Part shown: positions 7,344 to 60,697 of the stretch, piece by piece
Layout: every line of letters begins with the position of its first letter
Position numbering within the stretch: the first letter of the stretch is position 1
Assembly (NCBI RefSeq): GCF_037081835.1
Contig: NZ_CP146516.1
Span: 2,109,577 to 2,173,576 of the forward strand
DNA: 64,000 nt
Source: Spirobacillus cienkowskii
Lineage (GTDB): Bacteria > Bdellovibrionota_B > Oligoflexia > Silvanigrellales > Silvanigrellaceae
Direction: 5' to 3'
Translations under genes and position numbers: made by a program
The notes under the pieces: model-generated
Database searches by the model: none
What the model was told of the DNA's origin: nothing
What the model saw: the letters and a program-made list of their open reading frames with translations, nothing else

Positions 7344-7403
7344 TTTTTTTCATCCTCAAAAATTTGAGTACCAATGAATTTTAAAAATTCAGGAAAAATT
7401 CGT

Positions 7404-10358: not shown

Positions 10359-10545
10359 GTTAATACCATAAAAAAAATTACATATGTTTTTATCACTAAC
10401 ATATGTAAAATTTTTATTACTTATACTATTTAGACAACACAATCCCAATATTAAAAAATACTGATAATATTATAGTAAAAATTCGCAGCACTACCGTTGA
10501 TGTAACTAGCAATAGAGCATATTTTGCTGCAAATTCATTAAAAAT

Positions 10546-12300: not shown

Positions 12301-12701
12301 AGTAACTCTCAATATTTAACCTAGTTTGTAAAATTTTTAAATTTACCTTTAAATAAAAAAAAGTAAACTTATTTAGATCTTTTATTAGCATAAAAATTAA
12401 ACTTATACATTTAAAAAAAATATAATTGATTTTATAAAAACAAATAATTATTAAAAATTAAACTAAAAAATTTAGTAATAACATATTAATTTATAAAAAT
12501 TTTTACGAAATTTAAATTTAAAAATTGTAAAGTTCTAAAAAATTACAAAATTCTGTTTTTAAAAAGTTTTCTAACAAATTTAAGATTTTTTTATTTATAT
12601 GCTAGAATTAATGCATAAACTTAAAATACAGTGAGACTTAATGACATTTATTGCTATAAAGAATCGTTGTTATAATAAAAGTCGCGACTTTGAGGATTAA
12701 A

Positions 12702-14585: not shown

Positions 14586-14594
14586 GTTTAAACT

Positions 14595-31552: not shown

Positions 31553-32449
31553 TTAAAATCCCTCACCAATCAAACAAGATAATGGTTCAAAAACAACGAC
31601 ACCAGCAACTCTTAATCGTGTAAAAATAACATACTCAAGCCTATGAGCTTGAATAGGTAAAAATTCTGTTTCATGCGGAATTTTCAGCACAATTTTTTGA
31701 GGATCCTTTTTAAAAAACATAATTACATCCGAACCATTCTCGCCAGCTTTATTAAAATAAGGAACCTTGTAGATATTTTTAATTTCTGGTTTTGATTGTT
31801 TAAATATTTCAATAATCGGTATCGCATCTGTATCAGAATAAGGCGTATCGTGTAATGTATTATAAAGATCAGAAGCCAAAGCGACAGAATCAGGTGTTTC
31901 CATTTCATTCGTTGTTTTAGTAATAGTATTAAACATCTCGTTTAAATCGTTTAATTTTTCTTGAGATGTTTTTTCTTTCCAAGAAGTTTTACCCAATGAA
32001 TTCTGCAGTGGAGCAAACCGTGGAATAGTTGAATGATTTAAAATTCCTTGAGTTCCAAGCTGTTCATCACCTTTAAAAGCTAATTTTTCAATAATTTTTG
32101 CGTTTTCTTTTAAAGCAAGGACTACTTTTTTTGCATCTAAAGAAACGCCAGTACGTTGTGCTTTTTTTATCTCATCAATGCTATAAGAAAAAGAGCTCCG
32201 AACAGAAAAAACTTCAATAAAATTTTTTTTGCTGACATCCACGCGAGGAGTATCTTTCGCAGCATATCTTTCCAATATTTTTGAAATATTTCTTTCTTTA
32301 AAAGAACACCACTCAATAATATCTACACCGTCTCCATCAGAATAATCAATCGGAAAAACCTCTTTAGCAGTTAATCCTGGAAATTTTGTTTTGCATGCTT
32401 GTGGGATAATAACCTTTAATTGTTCTTCTAAAAAAATTGAATCTTGCAT
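31553..32449 (-). CDS. hypothetical protein (about 298 aa), convergent with the previous ORF
   Basis: An ORF with a GGAGGA RBS before the ATG at 32449. No recognisable motif. Confidence 0.45.
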   Translation of the reverse strand: MQDSIFLEEQLKVIIPQACKTKFPGLTAKEVFPIDYSDGDGVDIIEWCSFKERNISKILERYAAKDTPRVDVSKKNFIEVFSVRSSFSYSIDEIKKAQRTGVSLDAKKVVLALKENAKIIEKLAFKGDEQLGTQGILNHSTIPRFAPLQNSLGKTSWKEKTSQEKLNDLNEMFNTITKTTNEMETPDSVALASDLYNTLHDTPYSDTDAIPIIEIFKQSKPEIKNIYKVPYFNKAGENGSDVIMFFKKDPQKIVLKIPHETEFLPIQAHRLEYVIFTRLRVAGVVVFEPLSCLIGEGF

Positions 32450-32799
32450 TATTTTTTTCCTCCGCATTTACAAATTTACTATTAAGAATATTTTAATACT
32501 ATTATTTCTGTTTCTAGTAAAACTTTATTTAGTTTTGAAAAACTATAACTTATTGACATAATTCTAACCCTTCTTCAAAGTTAATAGTAAAAAAATTTTT
32601 AAAGAGTGTCTAAATTAATTTCAGCAATGAAGTGTTAGTCTTTTTTGAATCAGCAAGTTTTGATCAGTTTATTTGAAGATCATATTGAAAAAAAGCGTTA
32701 AGAAAAAAATAGTATTATTTGCGGAGTTTTTACCGTCTACATATTAGTATAAAAAAAGATTCTTGTAATTTTATGATAAATAAACCAAAGCACCCCTCC

Positions 32800-37240: not shown

Positions 37241-37264
37241 TTATTGTTAACTTGCGGAGATTTT

Positions 37265-39001
37265 ATGGATGATTTTCTTTTTTCAAAGCAGTATTTAAAC
37301 TACAACGAAATGTTATCTGAAATAGAAAATCTCTGCAAAAAATTTCCTAAAAATATATTTTTTGAAAAAATAATTATTGGAAAAACAATAGAACAAAGAG
37401 ATATTTTAGCAATTAGAGTTTACCCACAAGGGCAAAATTGCATTCAACCAACTGTATGGATTGATGCAAATATGCATGCCACAGAGTTCATAGGAACGAA
37501 TGTTGTTCTTGCTCATATTTATAATTTAATTGAGAAGCTTCATCAAAAAGTAAAAAAATTTTTTACAGTCAATTACATATTTGTTCCTAGAATTTGTCCA
37601 GATGGTGTCGAACAGTATTTTACAGAAGGCAAACGCAATCGAAGCAATGCACGCGACAAAAGACATTCAAGCGAAATAGGCTCTCATTGGAATCGATGTT
37701 GTTTAGTTAAAAAACCTGTGCGCGATAACAATGTCCAATTTCTTAAAAATCCAAATAGAGTTGGTTTAATGCGCAAAAAAAATGATGCTGGTATTTGGAC
37801 TTACGATAAAAAATATCCTCAATTATTGCGTCGTAAAGAACTTGGTGATACAGGGCCATTTTATGATATTTATCCCGAAGGCATGATAGAAAATTATGAT
37901 GGATTTAATATTCCTGCTGCAAACATTGTTGCAGAGAATGAGGTTGATCTCAATCGTAACTTTCCTGTAGAATGGAGCCCCTGTTACATAGAAAATATGA
38001 GTGGAAAATACCCTCTTTCCGAAACAGAAAGTCACTCTATTGTTACGTTTGCTGCAAAAATTCCACAAATTTATTTTTGGCTTAATTATCATACTTTTGG
38101 TGGCGTGTATATTCGACCACCAGAATCTCAAGATGACAGTTGTTTATCTATTGGTGATCGAAGCGTTTATTTAACCATAGACAAAAAGCTCGAAGAGATT
38201 ACGGGTTATCCTGCTGTTTCCGGACATAAAGAATTTACATATTTACCAGGAAAACCACTACCAGGATGTTTAACATCCTACTCATACCATGCGCATGGTG
38301 CTTTTAGTTACGTTTGCGAACTATGGGATTTACCAGCAAGAATTGATCGCACAGAACGTCCTTTTATGATGAGGTACAATAATTGGAATACCAAAGAATG
38401 GCGATCAATTTTTGAATACGACCAAAAATTTAATAATAGTATTTTGTTTGGTAGCGAATATTTATCGTATGAACACAGTCAAATAGGAGCAGTGGAAATA
38501 TTTGATTTTCCTTCGGCATTTGGAATCAATAATCCGCCAAAACAATTAATTAAAGATGTTATTGAAAAACAACTTCCGGTATTAGAGTTGATTGTTGACT
38601 TATCCCCACAAATCAAAATTGATGCCGAAATTATAAATAAATCTTCTGAACACATTAATTTTTTACATCTCACTATTGCAAATACTGGATTTTTACCAAC
38701 TTGGATTAGTGATGCCAAAACAAATGCACAAGGTTCAAAAAAAATAATTATTCAAATTACAGATACAAAAAACGCTGAAATAATAGGAGAAAACGTTTTT
38801 TTATTAACAGAATTATCTGGCTATCTCCAACTTGTTAACGGCTGGATTCACAGCCCAGATAACGGAACAGTTCATTGTACAAGCAAAACTATAAAAATTC
38901 CATTTTTAGCTTTAAATAAAGAATCAGATGTTGAAATAAATATTAAAGTAACGTTTCCAAATCTTGGAGAGTATTTAAAAACCGTAAATTTTAAGTTATA
39001 A
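37265..39001 (+). CDS. M14 family zinc carboxypeptidase-like protein
   Basis: Zn-binding HxxE in WIDANMHATEFIG. Size and layout fit M14. The ATG at 37265 has a GGAG RBS. Confidence 0.55.
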   Translation: MDDFLFSKQYLNYNEMLSEIENLCKKFPKNIFFEKIIIGKTIEQRDILAIRVYPQGQNCIQPTVWIDANMHATEFIGTNVVLAHIYNLIEKLHQKVKKFFTVNYIFVPRICPDGVEQYFTEGKRNRSNARDKRHSSEIGSHWNRCCLVKKPVRDNNVQFLKNPNRVGLMRKKNDAGIWTYDKKYPQLLRRKELGDTGPFYDIYPEGMIENYDGFNIPAANIVAENEVDLNRNFPVEWSPCYIENMSGKYPLSETESHSIVTFAAKIPQIYFWLNYHTFGGVYIRPPESQDDSCLSIGDRSVYLTIDKKLEEITGYPAVSGHKEFTYLPGKPLPGCLTSYSYHAHGAFSYVCELWDLPARIDRTERPFMMRYNNWNTKEWRSIFEYDQKFNNSILFGSEYLSYEHSQIGAVEIFDFPSAFGINNPPKQLIKDVIEKQLPVLELIVDLSPQIKIDAEIINKSSEHINFLHLTIANTGFLPTWISDAKTNAQGSKKIIIQITDTKNAEIIGENVFLLTELSGYLQLVNGWIHSPDNGTVHCTSKTIKIPFLALNKESDVEINIKVTFPNLGEYLKTVNFKL

Positions 39002-39013
39002 ATTTTAAAAATA

Positions 39014-39472
39014 TTATTTATTTATAATATCTTCTTCATCAATCCATTCATTAAATCCCTGTTTTCTTAGGGCTTCAATAATAGACGAACGTTCTGTGAC
39101 AATCATTTCTCTTTCACAAAATTTATTATCCAAATATCCACGATGATCATCATAGGGATTACAAATTGCTAGTCGATACTCTTCTAATGGAGCGGCTCCT
39201 ACACTCATCAAATCATCAAAATTTTCTAAACTTACTTCAGAAAAATCAAATCTTAATTGCGAAGCAGGAATATAGGGTAAATTATGCGAGCGAGCAAGAC
39301 ATCTTGCAAGAGTCGATTCATCAACATAATACAAATCAAGTAAGGCATCTGCTACAGATAATTTCCAGTTTTCAGCAAACTTCGTTACAATTATCCAGTC
39401 TACTTTATCGATTTTAACTTCGTAAGAAAGGACTTCAAATAATTTAGGCAATATAAAAGAACTTTTATTCAT
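39014..39472 (-). CDS. hypothetical protein
   Basis: An ORF only. The start is uncertain: TTG at 39514 or ATG at 39472. Confidence 0.3.
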   Translation of the reverse strand: MNKSSFILPKLFEVLSYEVKIDKVDWIIVTKFAENWKLSVADALLDLYYVDESTLARCLARSHNLPYIPASQLRFDFSEVSLENFDDLMSVGAAPLEEYRLAICNPYDDHRGYLDNKFCEREMIVTERSSIIEALRKQGFNEWIDEEDIINK

Positions 39473-39482
39473 ATAAATTCCA

Positions 39483-41330
39483 CTATGAGTTGGTTTGATA
39501 TTTTTGTTTTTCAATAATTTTTTTAACTTCTAAAATTTTAACATTAATTGATTTTGATATTTTAACAATTTCTTGATCTGATTCAATTTGGTATGGAAGC
39601 AAATTTTCTAAAAGTCTATTTGCTTCATAAAAATTATTTAATGACTCATTGTACATTTCATCTTTAAATTGAGCCATTGCCAAATGATACATAATAACTG
39701 GTTCTTCTGGTTCATACTTTAATGCTTCATTTAAATACCGTAATGAGTTAGAAATATCATTTTTTTGGTAATACAACCATCCTAATGAATCCAAGTAAAA
39801 TCCATTTTGAGGATCTATAGATATTGCTTTAAGTAGAACTTTTTTTGCATAATCTAGCTTTTCATTTTTTTCAATTAATGAATACCCTAAAAAATTTAAA
39901 CCATCTGCATAATTTGGCCATTTTGATGCAATTTTTTCTGCTAAAGTAATAGCAGCATCTTTAGACTCTGTGTACTTAATATATTCTGCTTTCTTTAAAT
40001 ATAACTCCCGTGCATTAGGTTTTTTATTAATTGCGTAATTTAAAATACCTAATGCTTCATCATATTTAGAAAAATATGCTAATATATTCGCTTTAAAAAT
40101 ACTATCTTCTACCAAATTATTTTTTGAAATTTCAAATTTTTTAATACTATCTAGCGCATCCATTTTATTTTTAGAATTAATTTGAATAAGAATAATCCCT
40201 TTTCTTGACTCTTGATATAATGAACTATTTTCTGGAACTTCGCTTAAATATTTTAGAGCCTCTTGAAAGCTTCTTAATCCTTGACTACAAAGAGCCAAAT
40301 AATATTTAATGTGAGGATCTGCATAATTCATAGAATCAAGAGTTAATAATCTCTTTTTTGCACCTTCATAATCTTTATTTACTAGTAAAATACGTGCAAT
40401 TTGAAATGAAAATTCCGGAGGAAATGGAACATGCTCATCAGAACTCGATTCTAATTTCAATAAAATTGATAAAGCTTCTTGAATTTTTTTCTGATACAGT
40501 AAAATATTAACATAATTTTGAGCGTTTAAATTATTATCAAGTTCTTTCTCAAATGCTAGTTTAAAATATTTTTCTGCTTCTTTATAATTTTTTTGTTGCT
40601 GTTCAATTTTTGCAATAATTGATATTATTTCTACATTATCAGAATCTATTAAATAAGCGCTCTTAGCATAATTTAAAGATTTTTTATAATTTTTCTCATT
40701 AAAATAAAGCTCAGAAAGACTTAATATTACACTCGTTGATTTAGGATGCTTTAATAAAAATTTTTCTAATATTTTTTTTGATCCTTTATTAATATTTAAT
40801 GCATACTTTACAACAATGGTTTCATTAGAAGGAAATTTTTTATACGCACTTTCTAAGGTTTTAACTAAAGATTTTTGATCATTTTTGAGAAAGTAAATAT
40901 TAGCTAAAGATAGCTCAACATCTGGATTTTTTTGAAACAAAACTGTAAGTTTTAAAGCAATATCAAGAGCCTCATCATATTCTTTTAAGTTAACTAGACA
41001 ATTTACTAAACTAAGTCCACCTGTTAAATTTTTAGAGGAAAAAAAGTTAATTAAATAAAGCTTTTTTGCTATTTCAAATTCTTTTTTTTCTTCAAAAATT
41101 TTACCTAAAAGAAAAGCTTCATCAGATTCCGCTTCAGTTATGCGACTTGCCTCAAAGTCATGCAAAATACGAGTAATACGCATATTTACATAAGATGAAC
41201 TATTTTTATCAATATTTTCTCGAGTGCTACCTATATTTTTAGCAACTTCAAATTTATTTGTTTGACATGCCGATACAAGATATACCAAAATAAAAATATA
41301 AAAATACAACTCAGATCTTAAGGACGACAT
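39483..41330 (-). CDS. TPR-repeat lipoprotein
   Basis: Lipobox LVSAC. Multiple 34-aa TPR-like repeats (AxxYxxA pattern) across the protein. Confidence 0.6.
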   Translation of the reverse strand: MSSLRSELYFYIFILVYLVSACQTNKFEVAKNIGSTRENIDKNSSSYVNMRITRILHDFEASRITEAESDEAFLLGKIFEEKKEFEIAKKLYLINFFSSKNLTGGLSLVNCLVNLKEYDEALDIALKLTVLFQKNPDVELSLANIYFLKNDQKSLVKTLESAYKKFPSNETIVVKYALNINKGSKKILEKFLLKHPKSTSVILSLSELYFNEKNYKKSLNYAKSAYLIDSDNVEIISIIAKIEQQQKNYKEAEKYFKLAFEKELDNNLNAQNYVNILLYQKKIQEALSILLKLESSSDEHVPFPPEFSFQIARILLVNKDYEGAKKRLLTLDSMNYADPHIKYYLALCSQGLRSFQEALKYLSEVPENSSLYQESRKGIILIQINSKNKMDALDSIKKFEISKNNLVEDSIFKANILAYFSKYDEALGILNYAINKKPNARELYLKKAEYIKYTESKDAAITLAEKIASKWPNYADGLNFLGYSLIEKNEKLDYAKKVLLKAISIDPQNGFYLDSLGWLYYQKNDISNSLRYLNEALKYEPEEPVIMYHLAMAQFKDEMYNESLNNFYEANRLLENLLPYQIESDQEIVKISKSINVKILEVKKIIEKQKYQTNS

Positions 41331-41355
41331 AATCTTTTCCCTACTCAATTACATT

Positions 41356-43833
41356 TTACAGTTCTCTTGCAAAACGAAGCGGAATACCATCAAACGAACC
41401 GCTTGACATAAATACTATCGTATCACCAGGAGTAACTCTAAGTTTAAGTGCTTCAAGCAATTTTTCATTGTCGTCAAAATACCGCGCATTTTTACCACAC
41501 GCTTTTGCAACAGCGGCGCCATCTAACACATCGTCTTGTTTCATACGCATATCTTGCGGTACCTTACCAAGAAAAATTTCATCTGCATGAAAAAAGCTTT
41601 TACTCAATTGTTCTTGAAGCACTCTTCTTCGCATTGTAGCATTTCTTGGATCAAAACAAGCAATTAGTTTTCCTTTTTTTCCAACACTCTCCATATAACT
41701 ACGAAAAGCAGCAAGAGTCGTTACAATTGCTGTGGGATGGTGCGCAAAATCATCAAATACTGTAATATTATTCTTTTCTCTCAATAGCTCAAACCTTCTC
41801 TTGACCCCTTTAAATGTTTTCATAGCCTTGCAAATTTTTAAATAAAATGAAGTGTTATCTTTAAATTTTGGAATACTCATATTTAAATTATCATCAATAG
41901 AGTCAAGTAAATTATCGGCATGCAAAATAGCTAAGGCAGCAATAGAGTTTAATGCATTATGGTGACCAAAAACTTGTGTTTTAAATTTTAAATTTTTTCC
42001 GTTTGGCTTAATACAATGAACTTCAATTCCGTCTGCCAACGTTTTATAAGTTTTGAGTTGCCAAAAAGATATTCCTTTCTTTTTTACCTTTTTTGAACCA
42101 AAACCAATTACTTGTGCCCCAGATTTTATTGCAATACGATAGGCGCGTTCATCATCAAAATTTGCAATGACAATGCCGTCTCTTTCTTTTGTTAGTTTTG
42201 CAAGTCTTAAAAACTCATCTTCAATAGCTTCTACATTTGGGTAAATGTCGGCATGATCAAATTCGATATTATTAATTAAACAAATCTTGGGCTCGTAATG
42301 TAAAAATTTTAGGTTGTCAAAAAAAGCGGAATCGTATTCATCACCTTCTAGCACAAATAGATCTTTAGATTTTAAAGCAAATCCTGCTTTAAAGTTTGCG
42401 GGTCTCCCTCCAATTAAAAATGAAGGTTTTTTTTCTATGCTTGTTAACAGATGAGTCACTAAACTGCTTGTCGTCGTTTTACCATGCGTTCCACTAATAA
42501 TAATATTTCTACTTTTTGATAAAAAATATTTTCTTAGTGCACTTGGAAAACTTAACATTGGTATTGTTTTAGAAAGTATTTCTTCTAGCTCATCGTTCTT
42601 TTTTAAAGACGCACTCAATCGACTTACCACATTGGCTAAAATAATTGCCTCGGGTTGATGTTTAGTTATATTTTCTGCAGAAAAACCAACATCTGGCTTA
42701 ATTCCCAAATCCGCTATGACTTTATCCATTGGCGGGTAAATTGGATTATCACTTCCAGTAACTTTATAACCAGCAGCTTTAAACAAACCTGATACTTGCG
42801 CCATTCCGGTACCACCAATTCCTGTCATATGAATTTTAATATTTAATTTATTTTCATCAAAAATTTTACGGCAAAATAGTTCAGAATGAAAACTAGAAGA
42901 AATCATATTTGTATGAATTGGCTTATTTGTAATGGTCACTTCAATTTTATTATTGTTTAGAATAATACTAACTTTACCCTTAGAAACAAGGGGAAAACAA
43001 AATTGATCATGACCAAATATCGGTAAGTCAACAATTGGTATATTGATTTTTTTTGTAAATATTTCGAGCAAAAGTTTTTTATCTAACGGTTTTTCATTGG
43101 AATCTAAGCAACCAGAAAATGTTCCAAGAACAACTGCTATTGTATTTTTTAAAAATCCCGAATTAATGAGTGAATCAATTTTTCTAATTATTTTATATAA
43201 GTGCTCATTACATTCTTCTATAAATAAAATATTTTTTTCTGGTAAATTAAGGTATCGAATTGATGCAAAACTTTCAGCCAAGCTTAAATTTAAAGGTATA
43301 CATATTCCCTCAATTTTTTTAGGCATATTAGCAAATAGCTGTGTTCCAAAAACATAATCATTAAACTGAGAATTCAACAGTTCAAATAAACATTTTCTAT
43401 CTATACTTTGACCATTAAATAAATTATTAGAATATGCATTTAGAGCATGAATATATGTGAAGTTAGGATAACGTAAAGTTAAATAATTGCCTAAAAAAGA
43501 GTTATCAGAAAAACCCACCATTATTTTATCTGAAATTACCGGAGGTAACATATTTTCTAAAAACGGAACTAATTCTGTGCACCCCATACCGCCTCGGGCT
43601 GCAAATAATATTGGAAATTTTCTCATAGTTAACGCATAACTTAATAAAGCAGATCTCTCTAATACTGGAGAAGCAGTAACACCATCTAATGCGGCTTGAT
43701 TTGGTAAAATTTCTGTAACTTCAAACCCCATTTCTTGAAATTTTTTTATTCTATCTTGTTTCTCTGATTCAGAAATTTTTAACTTCCCAGAAGGATGAAT
43801 TATAGCAATATGATTTTTTTTACTTCCATCCAT
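41356..43833 (-). CDS. mpl: fusion protein: N-terminal LD-carboxypeptidase (LdcA, peptidase S66-like) plus C-terminal UDP-N-acetylmuramate:L-Ala-gamma-D-Glu-meso-DAP ligase (Mpl)
   Basis: C-terminal half aligns to E. coli Mpl (GIGGTGM…GSD…YPPM; GTHGKTTT; EGDEYDSAFFD; NNIEFDHADI; FDDFAHHPTAI). N-terminal about 300 aa is LdcA-like (HIAIIHPSGK…). Confidence 0.7.
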   Translation of the reverse strand: MDGSKKNHIAIIHPSGKLKISESEKQDRIKKFQEMGFEVTEILPNQAALDGVTASPVLERSALLSYALTMRKFPILFAARGGMGCTELVPFLENMLPPVISDKIMVGFSDNSFLGNYLTLRYPNFTYIHALNAYSNNLFNGQSIDRKCLFELLNSQFNDYVFGTQLFANMPKKIEGICIPLNLSLAESFASIRYLNLPEKNILFIEECNEHLYKIIRKIDSLINSGFLKNTIAVVLGTFSGCLDSNEKPLDKKLLLEIFTKKINIPIVDLPIFGHDQFCFPLVSKGKVSIILNNNKIEVTITNKPIHTNMISSSFHSELFCRKIFDENKLNIKIHMTGIGGTGMAQVSGLFKAAGYKVTGSDNPIYPPMDKVIADLGIKPDVGFSAENITKHQPEAIILANVVSRLSASLKKNDELEEILSKTIPMLSFPSALRKYFLSKSRNIIISGTHGKTTTSSLVTHLLTSIEKKPSFLIGGRPANFKAGFALKSKDLFVLEGDEYDSAFFDNLKFLHYEPKICLINNIEFDHADIYPNVEAIEDEFLRLAKLTKERDGIVIANFDDERAYRIAIKSGAQVIGFGSKKVKKKGISFWQLKTYKTLADGIEVHCIKPNGKNLKFKTQVFGHHNALNSIAALAILHADNLLDSIDDNLNMSIPKFKDNTSFYLKICKAMKTFKGVKRRFELLREKNNITVFDDFAHHPTAIVTTLAAFRSYMESVGKKGKLIACFDPRNATMRRRVLQEQLSKSFFHADEIFLGKVPQDMRMKQDDVLDGAAVAKACGKNARYFDDNEKLLEALKLRVTPGDTIVFMSSGSFDGIPLRFAREL

Positions 43834-43851
43834 TTCATTCCCCTATTTAAC

Positions 43852-46785
43852 TTATTCTTTAATATTGTTTATTTTAAAGGTTAAGCTTTTTTTATTTTTT
43901 TGAGACTGTGACCACAATACAATCCGAGCATAAGAAATTGAATCTAAAGTATCAAATTGAGACCGCAGTTCATTTTCAATTTTTGGTTTTATCAAATCCA
44001 AAGATACAGATTCTAAATTATCACAAGAAAAAATAAAAATAGATTTATTTTTATCTAAACCATAACAAAACGCCGTATTTTTTGTAGAATCCTTTATTGT
44101 TAATGAAGAAGTTTCTATTTTATTTCCAACTTCTACCTGACAAGTAACTGTATCTGTAGGACTAACACCATTAATATTAAAAATAAATTCGCTTTTTTCT
44201 GACAGTTTATTAATTACACTAACACCATTTAAAAAAACCTTATACTTAAACAAATCATTTTTTAATTCTGTAAAAGCCTTACATAAATAATCATTACTGT
44301 TTTTATTTTTTAAACTTACAGACAGAAATGAACCTATTGTATTTATTTTATTATCATTAATAAAAGTAGATGCAATATTTTTTGGCTGATTTAAAAATAG
44401 ATCGAAAATATTTTTTGAATTATAATTCACTTCCACAAATTTTTCATTATTTTTATAGTAAAAATTTAACATAAAATTTAAATTTTTACTAATTTCCAAA
44501 TTTCTTTTAATTAAAATATTAACTTTTCTATCGCTATCAATTTTAACTTTAGAAAAGGTGATAGTTTTTTTAAATTTACTGTCTATAATATTATTTGCAT
44601 CATTACTAAAACTCTTAGCTAACGTTTTAACTAAATTTTTTTCTAATTTTTTTAGCCCCTTGGTGTATGAAATATTTGTTCCATTATTAACTCTAATAAT
44701 ACAATAATCTTCTTTTTTATTAAGATCAAAATTAAATTCATAATATGAATATTTTTCACCACTTAATTTCTCAATTAAATTCTTAGAAACAATTTGTGGA
44801 TTATCTTTTTTAAAATCAAAATACATTTCTGATGTATTGTTATTTTCAAGTATAAAATTTGTGGATAAATAAAAATTTTGAGGGTCTTTAGCTATTACAT
44901 AACATTTTTGACTACCATCAGCTAAATCAACCAACCCAGAATCATAAATAATAGGTCTTACATTAGGAAGATAAAACTTTATTTTAGATTTATAAAAACT
45001 ATCAGTACTATTTTCAAAAACTTTAATGTTTAAATAAAATTCTGGAATATCAAGATAATCTACAGGCTTATTATTTTCTAGATAAGCTTTAACTTTATAT
45101 AATTCATTATAGCTTATATTTAAAAAAATGTTTTCATGAGCATCAATAAAACATATATTTTTAGTTATTTCAAAATTATCTTCACTAGAAATAGAGCAAT
45201 TTATATCTTTTAATGATTGTAATTTCTTTTTTGAAATTACAAATTCATGCGTACCTTTATTTAAATCTACTAAAAACTCTTTTTTAATCCAATTTGGAGC
45301 ATTATCTTCACTATCTCTAATAAAAAGAGATGATGCACCTATAAAATTTTTATCCAAAACAGAACCAGCAACAATACATGTAATATATTTTGCTTTACCA
45401 GCTAACTTAAAAAAATTACTATTTCTAAAAATCGGCTCTTCTTTATTATCTGTATACCAATATACATTATACATTGCATAATTATTAATTTCTTTTGGGT
45501 ATACACATTCAAGAACTTTATCGTCTCCAACCATACGGAGACTAATTTTTGAGGATACTATTTCAAATTCAGCTTCATTATTATCATTATTATAAACTAT
45601 TAATTCTTTCTTAAAAACCTCACTACCAACTTCTAAAGATAATATTATCTTATCTGAAACAAATAATTTTTTAAATTCATCTGTAATAGTTATATTAATT
45701 TTTACATTTTCATTTTTTACTTGATCTGAATTTTTTATAATTGAACAAGAAATATTGTCATTTCCTAAACAGCTCCAATTAACTTCATTTTCTGGTAAAT
45801 TTAAGTTAGTTTTAAAATCAAGAACCTTTTGACTTTCATTTTTTTTAAAACCAATTTGTGATAAGCCATAAATTTCTAAAAACTCACTATTAATATAAAA
45901 TTTATCAGATTTTCCATTATTATTTTCACATCTATACTCTTGATGCAGTTCAATATATTTTTTTGGCAATATTTTCTCTTTAAAATCAAAAATTTTGTTA
46001 TTATTTTTGTACCATGTTGTTTTATTGTTTGGATTAAAAATAAAATCATTACTTTCACAAATAAAGTATTTATCAAAAAAATTGTTACTAAAAACTAATT
46101 TTGGTGGGATATTTTTTAAGTCTAAATCTTCTTCAAAATTTTTAACGACAAACTGTACACCTGTACTTTTGATAATTTTTTTTTCTTCTTTGATTCCTAT
46201 AGTTAAATTAAAAATTTTATATTTTTCATTACCTATAATATTTTTAATCTTTTTTAAATCAAAATTATTTTCATTCAAATTCCTCAAAGTTCCTGTTTCT
46301 TTATCAATAATTTTACAAAATTCTATTTCAAAATCTGTATTTGCGCTGCTTTCACAAAAATAATAACTGTTCTGAGATTTTTTGCCAAGATAATCAGATA
46401 TAGAAAAATCAAATACAGAAGATGTTGTATAAATTTCTATGCCAGGTGCGCTATTTGGTGTATTACTAAAATTAGAAAAATTTTGATAGGTTTGAACTTT
46501 TTTAAAAAAAAGGCCATCATATAATATTGTTTCGCAAGTAATATAAGGAAATTTTTGTGCCAAAGAAAAATCAATTTCTTTAGTACCTACAAGCATTTCT
46601 CTTTTTTTGTCAATATCTCTAATAATCCATTTTTTTTGAAAAATGGATACGTTATCTTTTTTATCTTTAATTTCGCAACTTAATTTTTTATTCTCATAAT
46701 TTGCTGATATCTCAATATATGAATGATTAGGATAACTGTTATTATCAAAATAATATATATTTGGATTGACAAATGCCATTCTCAA
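43852..46785 (-). CDS. large (977 aa) N/K-rich hypothetical protein
   Basis: Long uninterrupted ORF. No recognisable motif. Several Cys pairs. Confidence 0.45.
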   Translation of the reverse strand: MRMAFVNPNIYYFDNNSYPNHSYIEISANYENKKLSCEIKDKKDNVSIFQKKWIIRDIDKKREMLVGTKEIDFSLAQKFPYITCETILYDGLFFKKVQTYQNFSNFSNTPNSAPGIEIYTTSSVFDFSISDYLGKKSQNSYYFCESSANTDFEIEFCKIIDKETGTLRNLNENNFDLKKIKNIIGNEKYKIFNLTIGIKEEKKIIKSTGVQFVVKNFEEDLDLKNIPPKLVFSNNFFDKYFICESNDFIFNPNNKTTWYKNNNKIFDFKEKILPKKYIELHQEYRCENNNGKSDKFYINSEFLEIYGLSQIGFKKNESQKVLDFKTNLNLPENEVNWSCLGNDNISCSIIKNSDQVKNENVKINITITDEFKKLFVSDKIILSLEVGSEVFKKELIVYNNDNNEAEFEIVSSKISLRMVGDDKVLECVYPKEINNYAMYNVYWYTDNKEEPIFRNSNFFKLAGKAKYITCIVAGSVLDKNFIGASSLFIRDSEDNAPNWIKKEFLVDLNKGTHEFVISKKKLQSLKDINCSISSEDNFEITKNICFIDAHENIFLNISYNELYKVKAYLENNKPVDYLDIPEFYLNIKVFENSTDSFYKSKIKFYLPNVRPIIYDSGLVDLADGSQKCYVIAKDPQNFYLSTNFILENNNTSEMYFDFKKDNPQIVSKNLIEKLSGEKYSYYEFNFDLNKKEDYCIIRVNNGTNISYTKGLKKLEKNLVKTLAKSFSNDANNIIDSKFKKTITFSKVKIDSDRKVNILIKRNLEISKNLNFMLNFYYKNNEKFVEVNYNSKNIFDLFLNQPKNIASTFINDNKINTIGSFLSVSLKNKNSNDYLCKAFTELKNDLFKYKVFLNGVSVINKLSEKSEFIFNINGVSPTDTVTCQVEVGNKIETSSLTIKDSTKNTAFCYGLDKNKSIFIFSCDNLESVSLDLIKPKIENELRSQFDTLDSISYARIVLWSQSQKNKKSLTFKINNIKE

Positions 46786-51303: not shown

Positions 51304-54300
51304 TTGAGACTTCGTAAGAACTCAATTCAAAATCTCATACAGTCTATATCACTGCATGAACACCTCAAGCGTTACATGGAAATAAAACGCACAGGAAATC
51401 ATGCTGTCGCAAAATGCCCTTTTCATCCCGATTCCAATCCAAGTCTCTACATTTACGAAGACAACTATCATTGTTTTGCATGTAAGGCGCACGGCACTAT
51501 TATTGACTACGAAATGCACAGAACTGGATATGGATTTCGAGAAGTGGTTTTACAACTGTCAGAGCAATACAATATTCACCTTGAATTTGAAGAGGCTCAG
51601 CCAAATGAGCAAAAATCAAACTCAAATATTGAATTTTTCGAGAAATCAAACAAATTATTAGATTATATGTTAGAAATTTTTAATAAAAATTTTAAAAATT
51701 TTCACGCAAACATTAAAAATTTTAATAATATTCAATTAGAAAAATTAATTCATTTTTTTTTAGACAGCGGTATAGAAATTGGTTTTACAGGTATACATTC
51801 TGAAAGCGAGCCATTAAAAGAAAATGAACATATTAAATCTTTAATTCCAGAAGATTTATCAGAACGCTTTGCTTTTCCAATGTATAAAGAAAATGGAAAA
51901 ATTAGTGGATTTGCATATTCTTCTAAATTCACTAAAATTATTTCAGATAGCAATCCCAATTCAATAGAATTGTTAATTCACAATATCTCAAATACCCTAC
52001 AAGTTATAACTCCTTTTTCAAAATCAACATTAAGCTGCTTACATTGGCAAAAAGCACGTACAAGCGCTTCGCAAACAAGAGAGCTCTTTATAACCACAAA
52101 TTTTTGTGACTTTAACACACTTAAAAATTTACAAATTGATAATGTTATTTTTTGTTTACACAATAAACTTGACGCATTTTTATTAAAAATCTTGCAAAAG
52201 AGAGTGACAACAATTTATATTGTCATGACACAAAATAATTACAACTTTAAATTTTTATGGCAAATTTTTAATGAAATAACTCCTTTTTTTGATATTATAA
52301 TTAATTTTGGTTTTTTTCCTGAAAATCCAGGAGATATAAATTCTAATAATATAAAAAATTGGTTAAATAGTAAATTTTCACCTGTATACTTAGAAGTTAC
52401 AGAATACTTTCTAAAAAAGTCACCGGCGCCCGATAAACTTTCTATTTTTAAAAAACATTTACTACCAATTGTATTACGCAATAAAAATTCTTCCAGAAGC
52501 GATTTTATTCTTAACAATATTGCAAATAAACAATTTCAATCGTCAAAAAATATATTTTTTAGTTATCAAAACAATTTAATTAAAAAACACCAAGAATTTT
52601 CATATACAATTAATAGTGAAATTTCTCAAAAAAATGATGATTTAAAACCAAAAAATGAAGCACCAGAGTTAGAAAAAAACAATAAATTATACAAAAATAT
52701 TATGCAAAAAACTACAGTTTTTTACCATAATGCTTTGCTTTCAGAAATTCCTTATGCAATTGAGGCAAGAGAATATCTGTTTGATCGTGGTTTTAACTTA
52801 GATGATATAAAAAAATGGTTAATTGGAGTTTGCCCAATTAATAATCTTTTATCATTAAAAGCAGAAAATAAAGCAGCTCCAGCTAACACTTTACTTGAAC
52901 TCGGTTTAATAAAAAATAGTAAATTAAACAATAGATATTATGATTTCTTTTACAACAGAATCATTATTCCTATTTTTAATCACGATAACCAGGTAGTTGC
53001 TTTATCAGGTAGAGTTTTTTCTAAAAAAGAAACTTCTATAAAAGATATACCCAAATACATTAATTCACCTGAAACACAAATTTTTTCAAAGTCAAATATT
53101 TTATTTAATTTCAACAAAGCGTTACAAGCAATCGTAAGTCTCGGTTACGTTATAGTGGTTGAAGGTTACATGGACTGTATAACCCTAGTGAATCACGGCA
53201 TTACAAATACTGTTGCTGTCATGGGAACAAGTTTAACTCACGCTCATATCGATTGCCTTGCTAAAATTACAAAAAGAATAATTTTATGCTTTGACTCTGA
53301 TAAAGCAGGACAAAACGCCGCCAAGCGAAGTTTTGTAATAGGATATCCCTATCTTGATATTGATTTAGAATATCTTTCTATTCCTGGGGAAAAAGATCCA
53401 GATGCCTTTATCAAAAAGTATGGTCATGAGGAGTTTTTATCCCTTATCCCACAATCTATTCCACTACTTCATCAATTTTGTTCATGGTTGTTTGAAGAAG
53501 CGCAAAGTAACTTAGAAGTATTTTTTAAACTTATTAAAGAACAAATATTACCAGTTATCCTACAAAATAAAAATTTCAATTGCCAAGAAGATTCGCTCAC
53601 TTTTTTATGTGACAAATATTTTCAAAACCTTTATCCTCATGATCTTAGAAAAGAGATGGCTGCAGTGAGCACAACGCATCCCAAAAGCTATTTTCCTGAG
53701 ACGCAAAGTAAAATAAGTGCTCAAACATGTGAAAACTGGCCTGTACATTCTGTATTAGAAGTTAAAATTCTTTTATCGCTTGTTTTTGCTAGGTTTAATG
53801 AGCTACCAATCCGCTTGCAAAATGTGGCTCAAGGGCTTACTAGCCAAGAAGAGGCTAACGAAAGAATTTGCGCTATAGCACTCAATAAACAAATGAGTGA
53901 AGCAAGTTTTTCGATTTTGTTAGAATTACTATCTACAATGATAGAAAACCCATGTCTTTCTATCATTGAACTCGAAACCAATATGCGGCCTCAGATGTCG
54001 CATCACGCGAATATTTTAATAGGCTATGCAAATGCTGAGGCTAAACTTTTATTTCAATATAACCTACAGGAATTATTAAAAGAAAGCTTGCCTGCAGCCG
54101 TTTCCATGGTATCATTTAAGAACATTTGGGACTTAAAAAATTCTGGCTTTCTGAGGTTTCAGTTGCGAAACATTAAGTTAACCTCGCAAAGAGGAATTCT
54201 TTCTGCATTTATTGCTGAGACTTTACTTCACTTAGAACTCGAATATATTGATAACGCTCTTAAGGCGCGTTCGAGTGTCCACTTTGATCATGAAATAGAT

Positions 54301-54381
54301 AAACAATTTCATGATCTTGCAAAAGAAAGGGAGAGGCGTCGTAAAGAATTTGGTTCTTTTGAATCTTTTAATTTGCAATAA
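51304..54381 (+). CDS. dnaG: DNA primase DnaG with a ~370-aa low-complexity insertion between the zinc-binding domain and the RNA-polymerase domain
   Basis: CHC2 zinc finger CPFHPDSNPSLYIY…CFAC. TOPRIM (VVEGYMDCITL, CFDSDKAGQNAA). TTG start with a GAGGG RBS. 1025 aa. Confidence 0.85.
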   Translation: MRLRKNSIQNLIQSISLHEHLKRYMEIKRTGNHAVAKCPFHPDSNPSLYIYEDNYHCFACKAHGTIIDYEMHRTGYGFREVVLQLSEQYNIHLEFEEAQPNEQKSNSNIEFFEKSNKLLDYMLEIFNKNFKNFHANIKNFNNIQLEKLIHFFLDSGIEIGFTGIHSESEPLKENEHIKSLIPEDLSERFAFPMYKENGKISGFAYSSKFTKIISDSNPNSIELLIHNISNTLQVITPFSKSTLSCLHWQKARTSASQTRELFITTNFCDFNTLKNLQIDNVIFCLHNKLDAFLLKILQKRVTTIYIVMTQNNYNFKFLWQIFNEITPFFDIIINFGFFPENPGDINSNNIKNWLNSKFSPVYLEVTEYFLKKSPAPDKLSIFKKHLLPIVLRNKNSSRSDFILNNIANKQFQSSKNIFFSYQNNLIKKHQEFSYTINSEISQKNDDLKPKNEAPELEKNNKLYKNIMQKTTVFYHNALLSEIPYAIEAREYLFDRGFNLDDIKKWLIGVCPINNLLSLKAENKAAPANTLLELGLIKNSKLNNRYYDFFYNRIIIPIFNHDNQVVALSGRVFSKKETSIKDIPKYINSPETQIFSKSNILFNFNKALQAIVSLGYVIVVEGYMDCITLVNHGITNTVAVMGTSLTHAHIDCLAKITKRIILCFDSDKAGQNAAKRSFVIGYPYLDIDLEYLSIPGEKDPDAFIKKYGHEEFLSLIPQSIPLLHQFCSWLFEEAQSNLEVFFKLIKEQILPVILQNKNFNCQEDSLTFLCDKYFQNLYPHDLRKEMAAVSTTHPKSYFPETQSKISAQTCENWPVHSVLEVKILLSLVFARFNELPIRLQNVAQGLTSQEEANERICAIALNKQMSEASFSILLELLSTMIENPCLSIIELETNMRPQMSHHANILIGYANAEAKLLFQYNLQELLKESLPAAVSMVSFKNIWDLKNSGFLRFQLRNIKLTSQRGILSAFIAETLLHLELEYIDNALKARSSVHFDHEIDKQFHDLAKERERRRKEFGSFESFNLQ

Positions 54382-54469: not shown

Positions 54470-56971
54470 ATGACGAATTCCAAGTCAAAGTCTGCAACAG
54501 TTGGTGGCCAGAAACGTGCCTCTGAATCCACTTATAAAGAAAAATCCACAAGTTCAAAACCAGTGAAAAAAGTGGAAAAAAGCTCCCCAAAAACACAGAA
54601 TGTAACAAAAACTGGGGGAGTAAAAGCGTCAAAAAAAGATAGCTCTCAAAGTATAAAAAAGCAACCTCAAGAAAAGCTTTCAGAGGCTGTATCAAAAAAC
54701 GATACTCAACCAGAAAAGACAACAAAAAAAGTTACTCCCATAAAGGCAGAAAAAGAGAAAAAAGCCGCTGCGCCTAAAACCGTGAACCGTAACGCCAACG
54801 AAAAATCAATCAAACCTAAACCAGATGTTACTAAAAAAGGTGGCAAACAAAATGCACCTTTAGTTCAATCAGATACAACAATTGCCTCAATTGCCACTGC
54901 TGCTAGCAAAACAACTCCTGTCAAAGCAGCAAGCGCTAAAGCAACCAACAATACCGCTACAAAAAAGAAAACAAGCAAAGAAGAAAATGTTAAAAATACG
55001 CCGCATGATACACTGGCAAAAGGTATAAAAAATTCTAAAGCGCCAGAAACAAATTCTGCTTTAGCTGAAAAAGCAATTTTAACAAGTGTAAAGTCAAAAG
55101 ATAAAAAATCAAAATCAAGTAGCAGCGCAAGCGGAAATGCAACAGCTTCAGCACATAAAGAAAAAGATTCCAAACTCAATACTTCGCAAGAAACAAAAGA
55201 AAAAGATGTTCTTGCTGCAGTGGCTTCTAAAAAGAAAGAGGCACCAGCAACTAAACAAGATCTTGGTAAAAAAGCTGCAAAACAAACAAAACAAGTTAAA
55301 GCAGCAGACGAAGAAGAAGACTCATTTGAAGAGGCTTCTATCGATGAAGATATTGATGATTTTAACCTCGATGAAGAAGAAGATATTATTGGCGACGTTG
55401 ATATTGAAGCTGATGATGTCACAACTTTACCAGAAGATGATTTTCTTGCTGCAGAAGAATTTGGGGCAGATCTTGGCGGCGAAGAAGAAGAGCTTGATGC
55501 CTCTGCTCGCAGTAACGATCCTGTCCGTGTTTATTTAAGAAAAATGGGTCAAGTTGCTCTGCTATCTCGTGATGGCGAAGTTGAAATTGCCAAAAAAATT
55601 GAAAACGAAGAAAACAAATTGCTTGAACACCTTGTATCACTGCGCATTGGTATCAACCACATGTGTGATATTGGTCAAAAGTTTATTGATGGAATCATAA
55701 AAGCCAAAAACCTTGTTAAGGGCTTTGACGACGAACAAGATCAAGCCAATGACGAAGGACAATCTCAACGCGTCCGAGTTCTTGTTGAAAGCTTTATGAA
55801 ACTAGCTAAAACAGTCGTTGAAATTGAAGACAAATATGGTTTGCAAGGGCTCGATAAACTTTCTGCACATGAACGTGAAATTTTATTAGAAGCGCGTCAA
55901 CAAATGTTTGAAATAGTTAAAGAAATAAATATCAATCGCCGTATCATTCAGCAAATTGTGACAGAACTAGACACCCATGCTAAAAGTGTTTCAGACTGCA
56001 TGAAAGAAGTTAACAAAGTTAAAGTAAGAACTCGCTTAGATGAAGCAAGACTTGCTGCATACTGCCACAACAATGCAACAAGACCAATTGAAGTTAATTT
56101 TCTAACAGAAAGAGACTGGGAAAACTTTAAAAACACATACCTCTCTGCGCAAAATACCATCATTGCTAGCGAGCAAATGTGTTTTTTGAGCCGTAGTGAA
56201 ATTGCAATCAAATACCAAGTGATTAACAATGCAAACCGCTTTGCAGAAGAAGCAAAACGAGAATTGATTGAAGCAAATTTGAGGCTTGTGGTTTCTATTG
56301 CTAAAAAATACATGAACCGTGGCTTACAGTTTCTTGATCTAATTCAAGAAGGCAACATCGGTCTTATGAAGGCTGTCGAAAAATTTGAATACCGCCGCGG
56401 TTATAAGTTTAGCACTTATGCAACATGGTGGATCCGCCAAGCCATTACCCGTGCTATTGCCGACCAAGCACGTACAATTCGTATTCCAGTGCATATGATT
56501 GAAACTATTAATAAAATGGTACGTACAAGCCGTCAGCTTGTGCAAGAAATGGGAAGAGAGCCAACCCCTGAAGAAATTGCACAACGCATGGATATGAGCA
56601 TTGAAAAAGTGCGCAAGGTCATGAAAATCGCTCGAGAACCGATTTCTCTCGAAGCGCCAATTGGAGAAGAAGAAGACAACCATTACGGAGACTTTTTAGA
56701 AGACAAAGCACACGGTGCACCAATTGATATTGTTGCAAACCAAAGCTTGTCAGAACAAACAAAAAAAGTTCTTGCAACACTGACATCTCGAGAAGAGAAA
56801 GTTTTGCGTATGCGTTTTGGTATTGGCGAAAAAACCGACCACACCTTGGAAGAAGTGGGACAAAGCTTCGATGTCACTCGCGAACGCATTCGCCAAATTG
56901 AAGCAAAAGCGCTGCGTAAATTGCGTCACCCAAGTCGTTCCAAAAAGCTCAAAGCATTTATTGAAAGCTAA
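54470..56971 (+). CDS. rpoD: RNA polymerase sigma factor RpoD (sigma-70) with a ~340-aa K/A/S/T-rich basic N-terminal extension
   Basis: Region 1.2 ([16 protein letters not shown]). Regions 2-4 nearly canonical (…[19 protein letters not shown]…; C-terminal region 4.2 HTH). 833 aa. Confidence 0.9.
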
Positions 56972-58724: not shown

Positions 58725-58867
58725 TTTTTATCCCCAGGCAGAGTTGACTTAGACACATTTTCTTGATATGCTTTCTTGTGCTTACATTCGCGTCACATAT
58801 GACGCAGCCAGCCAACAATCCCTTCTTTTATTTTATTCCTTCAACTTTTTCTTTGGAATCATTTAGC

Positions 58868-60697
58868 ATGGTAGATGACAAAAATAACGATGACTTTGAT
58901 AATGAGTCCCCTTCGGCTCGTAAACGTTCAACCAATAATTCAACAACCCGACGCTATATTCGTAGGCCACCTGAAGAAAACACGCTTTTTAACGAAAATT
59001 CTTCAGCAGCACCTTCTTCACAAGGAGATAATGATAGCGAGAACATTTCTACGTACACACCCTCACGGCGTGTATTTACGAGATCAAAAGACCCTTCCAA
59101 TACGGGAACATCTCAAAATCATAGCTCATCTTCCAATATGCCATTCACACGTTCGTCTCCTTATGGTATGAGTAATCCACCCCCTAACAGAATGGGGTCT
59201 CCACAAGCTTCAATGAACGCAGGAGGAGGTTCAACAGTGCATCCCGCATCACCAGCTATGCAACAACAATCTTCGCAACAGGGTCAGTCGTCAAACAATC
59301 AATCGTACCGTTCTTTTCAGGGACACAACCACCCAGCAAATCAACAGTCACGAGGACATCATTCCGCATCAAGACGCTCTGATTTGCCTCGCCCTTCTCA
59401 AGGAGGAGCAGAAGAAAAAGAACCAGAATTCAATTCAGAAGTTCCTGTTATGAATCTAAAAGAGCTGAAAGAAAAACACATCAGTGATTTGGTTCATATG
59501 GCAAAAGAGATGGGAATTGATGGCGCAGCAAATTTAAGAAAACAAGATCTCGTTTTCTCACTTCTTGAAGCACAAGCAGTGCGCAATGGAGTTGTATACT
59601 CTGAAGGTGTTCTGGAAACATTACCTGATGGTTTTGGCTTTTTAAGAGCTCCTGACTACAATTATTTGCCTGGGCCTGATGACATTTATGTCTCACCTTC
59701 ACAAATTCGTCGCTTTAATTTACGTACCGGCGATACAGTATCAGGACAAATTCGTCCACCAAAAGATAACGAACGTTACTTTGCACTATTAAAAGTAGAA
59801 TCTGTAAATGGAGAAACTCCTGATTTTACAGGAGAGAAAATACTATTTGATAACTTAACAACCATTCACCCAGATTTTAGATTTAAACTCGAAAACGATC
59901 CGCAAATTTATAGCACACGTTTAATTGACTTATTTGCGCCAATCGGAAAAGGGCAAAGAGCTCTTATTGTGGCACCTCCTAAAACAGGTAAAACAATTTT
60001 ATTGCAAAACATTGCAAACTCTATTGCACAAAATCACCCAGAAGCTGTGCTTATTGTTTTACTTATTGATGAACGCCCCGAAGAAGTGACAGACATGGAA
60101 CGCTCAGTGCGTGGCGAAGTTGTGAGCAGTACATTTGATGAGCCTGCGCAACGCCATGTTCAAGTTGCAGAAATGGTCATCGAAAAAGCAAAACGTCTTG
60201 TCGAACACAAAAAAGATGTGGTTATTCTGCTTGACTCCATTACACGTCTGGCGCGCGCATACAACAGCGTTGTTCCGCCAAGTGGTAAAATTTTAACTGG
60301 TGGTGTGGATGCCAACGCGCTTCACAAACCAAAAAGATTTTTTGGTGCAGCACGTAACGTCGAAGAAGGCGGTAGCTTAACAATCATTGCAACCGCATTG
60401 ATTGATACAGGCAGCCGTATGGATGAAGTGATTTTTGAAGAGTTCAAAGGTACAGGTAATATGGAACTTGTGCTCGATCGCCGCTTAGCAGAACGCAGAG
60501 TCTTTCCAGCAATTGATATTAATAAGAGTGCAACACGCAGAGAAGATCTCTTACTCGGCAGAGAAACTCTCAATCGTTTGTGGGTACTGCGTAAGGTGCT
60601 TCACCCTATGTCGCCTATTGAATCGATGGAGTTCTTACTACAACGTTTTGAGCGCTCAGAAACCAATGATGAGTTTTTAAGCAGCATGAACGGTTAA
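58868..60697 (+). CDS. rho: transcription termination factor Rho with a ~190-aa S/N/Q/P/G-rich N-terminal extension
   Basis: The canonical Rho N-terminus [22 protein letters not shown] begins about 195 residues in. Walker A/B and Q/R loops present (…[17 protein letters not shown]…). The start is uncertain: ATG at 58868, or the ATG at 58799 (MTQPA); the ORF track begins at 58763. Confidence 0.85.

Follow-up and report, generated by a model that had tools for sequence, protein, structure and literature searches.

The 64,000-nucleotide stretch of Spirobacillus cienkowskii contig NZ_CP146516.1 considered here (positions 2,109,577 to 2,173,576, hereafter the window) encodes on its reverse strand an 825-amino-acid protein, in which a peptidase of the S66 family resembling the LD-carboxypeptidase LdcA is joined to a ligase resembling the murein peptide ligase Mpl. 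Judged from its homologs, the gene probably encodes a cytoplasmic bifunctional enzyme for the recycling of peptidoglycan peptides, which would have arisen by a one-time fusion of an ldcA-mpl operon and whose benefit would be that Mpl is tied to LdcA.

Domain organization of the fused protein

The gene is one open reading frame (ORF) with an ATG start and no internal stop, and its ATG follows the stop codon of the gene upstream at a distance of 18 nt. The encoded protein contains five domains, all of which exceed their Pfam gathering cut-offs: two S66 domains (PF02016 and PF17676) followed by three Mur ligase domains. The first-pass annotation of this DNA had read the frame as an LdcA-Mpl fusion of 825 residues with a junction at about 42900-43000; the single ORF and its domain order bear this out, as does the Pfam comparison with PF02016 (47.1 bits in the N-terminal part) and the Mur_ligase domains, and the junction falls in a domain-free stretch at 42838-42969 (aa 289-332). 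The features of the gene are as follows.

41356-43833, minus strand: fused ldcA-mpl ORF, 825 aa, defined by the ORF, its domains and conserved homologs with the same architecture
43839-43844, minus strand: Shine-Dalgarno sequence AGGGGA, read from the sequence, separated from the ATG by 5 nt (its last base is 6 nt away from the A)
43471-43809, minus strand: Peptidase_S66 N-terminal domain, aa 9-121 (Pfam 47.1 bits, cut-off 25)
43507-43509, minus strand: codon of the nucleophile Ser109 (G-F-S-D-x-S), within the Peptidase_S66 N-terminal domain
42970-43308, minus strand: Peptidase_S66C C-terminal domain, aa 176-288 (Pfam 53.7 bits, cut-off 23.7)
43216-43218, minus strand: Glu206, within Peptidase_S66C
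43009-43011, minus strand: His275 (F-G-H), within Peptidase_S66C
42838-42969, minus strand: inter-enzyme linker, aa 289-332 (~44 aa), between the S66C and Mur_ligase domains
42529-42837, minus strand: Mur_ligase N-terminal (UDP-MurNAc-binding) domain, aa 333-435 (Pfam 40.9 bits), with GIGGTGM at aa 338-344
41926-42498, minus strand: Mur_ligase_M middle (ATP-binding) domain, aa 446-636 (Pfam 90.5 bits)
42475-42492, minus strand: P-loop GTHGKT, aa 448-453, present in 92/92 fused proteins
42304-42336, minus strand: Mpl-specific Tyr500 and S-A-F-F-D loop, aa 500-510, from the alignment (motif definition from PMC3060825)
41398-41799, minus strand: Mur_ligase_C C-terminal (peptide-binding) domain, aa 679-812 (Pfam 67.0 bits)
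Near or in Mur_ligase_C, minus strand: Mpl-type residues K-R-R (678-680), F-A-H-H (696-699), D-P-R-N-A-T-M (728-734) and M-S-S-G-S-F (809-814), from the alignment and PMC3060825

The ligase half

In BLASTP the C-terminal part of about 490 residues matches E. coli Mpl with 34% identity and 272 bits over residues 1-441 of 457, as compared with 25-26% and 82-126 bits against E. coli MurC. Among sequences in the Protein Data Bank (PDB) the Mpl entries come out best, 3hn7 with 191.7 bits and 3eag with 145.7 bits, the best MurC entry reaching 138.8 bits. Each of the 46 ligase regions from the fetched loci scores better against Mpl than against MurC.

The features described as Mpl-specific by Das et al. 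(2011, PMC3060825) were scored on an alignment of 92 fused proteins. Among them are a tyrosine and the insertion loop (S/T)AFFDKRSK, which are missing from other Mur ligases (PMC3060825). The tyrosine, a serine in MurC, is present as Tyr500 in 92/92 fused proteins, and the loop is conserved as S/T-A-F-F-D-K-x-K-F at a place where MurC has a 6-residue gap. The motif F-A-H-H, also found in 92/92, corresponds to Y-G-H-H in MurC, while K-R-R and M-S-S-G-x-F match the RR and SNG features of the Mpl type. The H-R-x-x-R motif that binds L-Ala in MurC is replaced by R-N-A-T-M, similar to R-S-N-T-M of E. coli Mpl (in full, D-P-R-N-A-T-M in the fused proteins, E-P-R-S-N-T-M in Mpl and Q-P-H-R-F-T-R in MurC). 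By these residues the ligase half is Mpl, not MurC, and the end-to-end alignment together with the Mpl signatures confirms the first-pass assignment of the C-terminal ~480 residues.

Database labels of the fused proteins are generic or wrong, being either “Mur ligase family protein” or “UDP-N-acetylmuramate--L-alanine ligase”. UniRef gives the latter name, that of MurC, to the orthologs from Silvanigrella aquatica and Fluviispira (P0007 and P0013), where the residues say Mpl; on that ground the MurC name is a propagating misannotation.

The peptidase half

The N-terminal ~300 residues, previously assigned to S66 LdcA, hold both S66 domains above their cut-offs and an intact triad, in line with that assignment. 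Ser109, Glu206 and His275 align to the triad Ser115-Glu217-His285 of P. aeruginosa LdcA (PA5198); they are invariant in 92/92 fused proteins and the same in standalone S66 relatives. Identity to E. coli LdcA is 24%. Against LdcA structures the S66 half scores 57.9 bits (6uuk) and 38.3 bits (E. coli LdcA, 5z01), compared with ~23 bits for MccF, and by sequence it is nearer to LdcA than to MccF. Foldseek superposition of the model on LdcA gives a template modelling (TM) score of 0.84 for 6uuk and 0.80 for 2aun. The N-terminus, MDGSKKNHIAIIHPSGKLK, has no hydrophobic signal-like segment as judged by eye.

The linker and the predicted structure

The linker is the least conserved segment of the protein, with a mean column conservation of 0.34 as opposed to 0.60-0.69 in the domains, and because the latter range holds on both sides of it, both halves are under similar constraint. 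The distance from FGH to GIGG in the fused proteins is 51-93 aa, its median of 64 aa being modestly larger than the summed tails of the split proteins (35-55 aa). There is no conserved internal start: a Met within 12 aa upstream of GIGG is present in only 23/92. AlphaFold2, run on all 825 residues with a 58-sequence alignment, gave a mean predicted local distance difference test (pLDDT) value of 92.2 and a predicted TM score (pTM) of 0.91; within the linker, pLDDT is ~90 over aa 301-320 and drops to 71 over aa 321-330. The model predicts a defined packing of the two enzymes, not a floppy tether.

Distribution and origin of the fusion

A search of 5.8 billion protein clusters found the same five-domain architecture in ~100 clusters (at the 90% identity level), with identities from 94% down to 37%. 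In an exhaustive HMMER pass over 1.84 billion representatives there were ~15 full-length fused clusters at 50% identity, beyond which the scores fall sharply from 509 to 342 bits, to standalone Mpl proteins of ~470 aa. Carriers include Silvanigrella aquatica and Pigmentibacter sp., each with a complete chromosome (3.34 Mb and 3.65 Mb), as well as Fluviispira multicolorata, and a contig from another sample, 92% identical in nucleotides, keeps the same open frame.

The gene order was compared in 80 loci, retrieved with a single S66 peptide pattern from one genome per species and classified by script; they represent a sample and not a census. Eighteen of these are fused and belong to Silvanigrella, Fluviispira, Silvanigrellaceae, Silvanigrellales, “Oligoflexia” or generically labelled metagenome-assembled genomes (MAGs) of the same similarity group. 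The two genes are fused in all 18 Silvanigrellales-type species genomes with enough downstream sequence (18/18); the only two non-fused members of the similarity group are both cut off at a contig end. Several of the fusion-bearing Silvanigrellales-type MAGs are labelled Pseudomonadota or Betaproteobacteria. In 13 loci S66 and Mpl are adjacent but separate (nine labelled Oligoflexus or Oligoflexales, four generic Pseudomonadota or proteobacterium), and in 46 the S66 gene has no neighbouring ligase.

Each of the four closest unfused Mpl genes is directly preceded on its own strand by an S66 gene (gaps of -4, +9, +14 and +13 bp), and mpl shares operons with standalone S66 genes in Oligoflexales, Bdellovibrionales-type and other genomes. 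Where the two genes are split, the stop codon of S66 frequently overlaps the start codon of mpl (ATGA, GTGA), or the two sit a few bases apart; a single stop loss or small indel would join the two frames. In a bootstrapped neighbour-joining tree of ligase halves the fused clade (bootstrap 61) is sister (62) to the split clade (100), and both group with E. coli Mpl, apart from MurC (bootstrap 70), which moderately supports such an origin of the fusion. Micro-synteny is kept across the fused loci, in the order rhodanese, fusion, tetratricopeptide-repeat (TPR) lipoprotein and a conserved ~160-aa protein. Within the class Oligoflexia, phylum Bdellovibrionota, Silvanigrellales is the sister order of Oligoflexales. 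Since the genes are fused in 18/18 Silvanigrellales-type genomes and adjacent but separate in the sister Oligoflexales, the fusion looks like an order-level derived trait that originated once, from an ldcA-mpl operon, at the base of Silvanigrellales.

Proposed role in peptidoglycan recycling

The steps of the proposed mechanism follow from homology. The S66 domain would trim the tetrapeptide to the tripeptide, and the Mpl module would then ligate the tripeptide onto UDP-N-acetylmuramic acid (UDP-MurNAc) with the use of ATP, bound at the P-loop GTHGKT. MurF, for which a candidate gene lies at window 96-1631, would extend UDP-MurNAc-tripeptide to complete the pentapeptide.

The main benefit of the fusion would be obligate 1:1 co-expression and co-inheritance, whereby Mpl is never made without its LdcA partner. 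In E. coli the state of “Mpl without LdcA” is toxic, because tetrapeptide is loaded by Mpl onto UDP-MurNAc when LdcA is absent, yielding precursors useless as transpeptidation donors and leading to growth defects and lysis (PMC10622912, PMC13046382). Discrimination by the ligase itself is ~44-fold: PaMpl acts on the tetrapeptide at ~2% of the tripeptide rate (5.9 vs 260 per min, PMC3060825). By analogy with E. coli, avoidance of such “toxic recycling” through 1:1 co-expression and co-inheritance is the most likely selective benefit. The earlier suggestion that the fusion prevents release of the toxic tetrapeptide confuses the roles: the tetrapeptide is the substrate of LdcA and not its product, and the documented danger is the ligation of untrimmed tetrapeptide by Mpl when LdcA is missing (PMC10622912, PMC13046382).

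Two further benefits are plausible, namely proximity channelling of the tripeptide, as the modelled packing would allow, and “proofreading” by LdcA of UDP-MurNAc-tetrapeptide made by Mpl. A stronger version would have the fusion act as a rigid machine with two active sites, in which the LdcA domain is an obligatory gatekeeper for Mpl through direct handover of the tripeptide, stripping of D-Ala from UDP-MurNAc-tetrapeptide, or both; this version is rather improbable.

Alternative explanations

The window carries an unusual allele of the Mpl loop. At 42310-42315 on the minus strand (codons 507-508) an in-frame deletion of 3 nt and one substitution, relative to loci L090 and L004, give GAC AAC CTA AAA (FFD-N-L-K) in place of GAT AAG GGC CCA AAA (FFD-K-G-P-K). 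A 94%-identical relative and S. aquatica both have AAG GGC CCA, and among the 92 sequences that of the window is the only one without the loop Lys and one of two without the Pro. The lost residue corresponds to PaMpl Lys189, in the loop flagged as Mpl-specific by Das et al. (PMC3060825); the change would be either a true lesion of an active-site loop or an error in a GGGCCC run.

Several points weigh against a working bifunctional recycling enzyme, and four other explanations have been considered. No import or upstream recycling genes (ampG, ampD, nagZ, anmK) were recognised within the window, and with the near-invariant Lys gone, the ligase of this allele may be impaired. It is unlikely, all the same, that the gene is a partly disabled allele, in which the change from K-G-P to N-L cripples ligation and leaves mainly LdcA, or that the deletion comes from an error of sequencing or assembly in the GGGCCC run, in which case the true sequence over 42310-42315 would be AAGGGCCCA. 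The loss of a Lys equivalent to PaMpl Lys189, unique among the 92 and set against AAG GGC CCA in the relatives, speaks for either variant; on the other side, the change keeps the reading frame, there is no decay elsewhere in the gene (46 mostly conservative differences from P0001), and the function of the loop is putative in any Mpl. As to the frame as a whole, a frameshift or stop between two genes had been named in the first-pass annotation as a finding that would undo the fusion. Apart from the general possibility, the one circumstance that would favour an assembly or annotation artefact is that the ancestral genes are adjacent with overlapping stop and start codons. As the identical open frame is shared by ~100 clusters independent of one another (90% identity level), by two complete genomes, by the contig from another sample and by 18/18 species genomes, a missed stop or frameshift is excluded for practical purposes; the linker is moreover translated, partly conserved and modelled confidently by AlphaFold, and the artefact is effectively refuted.

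The identity of each half can be questioned in a similar way. The automatic UniRef name, if followed, would make the ligase half the organism's MurC, which ligates L-Ala de novo, with an accessory peptidase attached. NCBIfam by itself is ambiguous, in that the score for mpl, the top family, is 300.6 bits, under the TIGR01081 equivalog cut-off of 388.7 and only 25 bits over murC (275.8 bits, also below its own cut-off); Gly343 of GIGGTGM is MurC-like in 90/92, the Mpl motif having Phe (GI(C/G)GTFM); Foldseek ranks closed-form MurC structures over Mpl 3hn7; and no separate murC was found within the 64-kb window or the 0.74 Mb of fetched loci. Gly343 is, however, a clade trait as far as the sequences go, because the unfused Oligoflexales Mpl has it too, and Foldseek does not separate Mpl from MurC because its ranking follows open or closed conformation (TM 0.89 for both the closed-form MurC structures and the Mpl fragment 3eag, with no PDB chain covering both halves). 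The full-length E. coli Mpl match, more than a hundred bits above MurC, the Mpl-only loop and Tyr, FAHH in place of YGHH, the Mpl pattern in place of H-R-x-x-R, the grouping with Mpl in the tree and the closest unfused relatives, which are Mpl-type genes adjoining an ldcA-like gene, make the MurC assignment very improbable. For the S66 half, the score of 54.9 bits is far under the cut-off of 378 of the LdcA equivalog model NF008424, and the fused S66 halves reach 32-61 bits to E. coli LdcA, compared with 78-114 bits for the standalone S66 operon partners. Because the fused halves diverge more than the standalone partners, the substrate preference of S66 could be shifted. The half might then no longer be a tetrapeptide LD-carboxypeptidase feeding Mpl: it could be an editing hydrolase acting mainly on UDP-MurNAc-tetrapeptide to give UDP-MurNAc-tripeptide, an MccF-like hydrolase of another substrate, or mainly a peptide-binding or regulatory module. 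Editing would fit the rigid packing on the ligase predicted by the model, as the divergence and the low equivalog score would fit any of the three. The triad and the surrounding motifs are nonetheless invariant in 92/92, the half is nearer to LdcA structures than to MccF, and the fusion descends from operons with a canonical-looking S66 gene before mpl. Such a changed role is therefore quite unlikely, and its editing form would still be LD-carboxypeptidase chemistry, overlapping with the bifunctional recycling enzyme proposed here.

Neighbouring genes and the rest of the window

Downstream of the fusion, two genes continue the same gene string and are present in nearly all fused loci.

39483-41348, minus strand: TPR lipoprotein gene (621 aa, with the lipobox LVSAC) whose start is 7 nt past the fusion stop; its position is conserved across the order
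39014-39514, minus strand: conserved ~160-aa protein without Pfam match (166 aa here), at the end of the gene string, unusually well conserved with 48-90% identity across fused loci

Upstream, between the rhodanese gene and the fusion, is a 977-aa ORF (43852-46785, minus strand) of ~22% GC without Pfam or NCBIfam match; neither it nor the 166-aa protein has a Pfam match even at E<=1. Full-length homologs of the 977-aa ORF (37-40% identity) occur in Silvanigrella- and Fluviispira-like loci; L090 has a fragment at 88% identity, and L010, L012 and L022 match weakly and in part. Because the remaining fused loci lack it, the ORF appears to be an insertion in the conserved gene string that is specific to a lineage. 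A promoter and terminator scan was at background (56 promoter-like sites vs 53 expected) and is silent on operon boundaries.

An M14 carboxypeptidase (37244-39001, plus strand) was considered as an MpaA-like partner and rejected: NCBIfam gives no match for it, its strand is opposite to that of the fusion, and in S. aquatica an extra gene stands between the two. Of the fused loci checked, S. aquatica alone showed M14 near the fusion, most loci having ~2.5 kb of downstream flank, too short to reach it.

The Mur ligase at 96-1631 (plus strand) is MurF-like (TIGR01143, 260.6 bits); it is not a MurC, and, lying 40 kb away, it has no bearing on the distinction of Mpl from MurC. It is followed by a class B penicillin-binding protein (PBP, 2262-4076, plus strand) and, directly after the PBP, by an Eco47II-type restriction-modification pair of C5 methylase and endonuclease (4403-6431, minus strand), so that the usual dcw order is not kept. 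The region 6000-16000 has 23-26% GC and several long ORFs (453, 588, 631 and 910 aa) without Pfam match. A 304-aa protein at 31553-32467 (minus strand) matches PF09950 (major capsid protein) and Linocin_M18, and is encapsulin-like or a phage-capsid remnant. Three housekeeping proteins encoded on the plus strand are unusually long: DnaG (51304-54381) has 1025 aa, of which ~370 separate the zinc ribbon (aa 5-96) from the catalytic core, which starts at aa 474; RpoD (54470-56971) has 833 aa; and Rho (58763-60697) has 644 aa, with an N-terminal extension of ~230 aa.

Relation to known enzymes

The fusion shares its folds, catalytic motifs and consecutive pathway steps with E. coli LdcA (murein tetrapeptide LD-carboxypeptidase, S66) and Mpl (UDP-MurNAc:L-Ala-gamma-D-Glu-mDAP ligase, mDAP being meso-diaminopimelate). 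In E. coli the two are separate proteins from unlinked genes (1.24 Mb and 4.46 Mb), whereas here they form one polypeptide with a linker of ~44 aa; their functional coupling in E. coli is documented by the toxicity of Mpl-dependent recycling upon loss of LdcA (PMC10622912, PMC13046382). The Oligoflexales ldcA-mpl operon (Oligoflexus sp. JBGSTF010000013.1; loci L007 and L044) has in common with the fusion the order of S66 then Mpl, the class Oligoflexia, GIGGTGM and a sister ligase clade, but it consists of two ORFs, is followed by OmpA-RNase Y-YmdB and has an S66 partner less diverged from canonical LdcA.

NCBIfam has models for the Mur fusions MurC/Ddl (NF011171), MurE/MurF (NF008896) and MurF/alanine racemase (NF008897), which likewise combine a ligase with an enzyme of a neighbouring step and which the fusion matches only weakly; the NCBIfam search returned no dedicated LdcA-Mpl model. 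These fusions join biosynthetic steps, while LdcA-Mpl joins a recycling hydrolase to a recycling ligase. Since fusions of a Mur ligase with an adjacent pathway enzyme are already known, LdcA-Mpl is an undescribed variant of known enzymes, with no new chemistry, and not a new kind of system. No published description of the architecture was found in full-text literature searches, and a comparative-genomics paper covering Silvanigrella does not mention it. The first-pass remark that this is not a described standard architecture thus holds for the literature; the architecture is, however, standard across Silvanigrellales and already present in databases under generic or wrong names.

A second fusion of an upstream hydrolase to Mpl, independent of the first, is found in P0142 and P0200 (843-844 aa; L091:4057-7535), where an N-terminal serine hydrolase of family PF00144 is attached to Mpl and a standalone S66 gene lies directly upstream. 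It derives from the gene upstream of mpl in an S66-PF00144-Mpl operon, and differs from LdcA-Mpl in that the hydrolase is of another family and S66 stays a separate upstream gene. PF00144-Mpl fusions likewise appear to be undescribed. Operons of S66-PF00144-Mpl with overlapping ends occur in L040:3824-7210, L057:3181-6584 and L067:1277-4821 (probably also in L045 and L061), in Bdellovibrionales-type, Binatia and other MAGs. Their middle gene, a PF00144 “beta-lactamase family” protein of ~355-375 aa, may be a cytoplasmic DD-peptidase of peptide recycling. Further long Mpl proteins (P0158, P0178, P0181, P0210, P0148, P0232 and P0164), which may be real or gene-call fusions, include Mpl with RNase III and a double-stranded RNA-binding domain (708-775 aa), Mpl with GNAT, Mpl with AMP-binding, PCP and thioesterase domains (1388 aa, resembling non-ribosomal peptide synthetases) and one with extra N-terminal Mur_ligase N-domains.

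Significance

LdcA and Mpl belong to a textbook recycling pathway that is turned toxic by a missing step. The finding corrects database names, some orthologs being called MurC. The repeated fusion of Mpl with upstream hydrolases suggests that PF00144 may be a third participant in cytoplasmic peptide trimming, and if LdcA were an obligatory gatekeeper of Mpl, the PF00144-Mpl fusions would reflect a general rule whereby Mpl has to be physically coupled to a peptide-trimming enzyme. The order-wide fusion, together with a sister lineage in which the genes are separate and overlap, is a clean “Rosetta-stone” confirmation of the coupling of LdcA and Mpl outside gammaproteobacteria, and the fused enzyme offers a ready-made system to test if channelling or editing protects the precursor pool.

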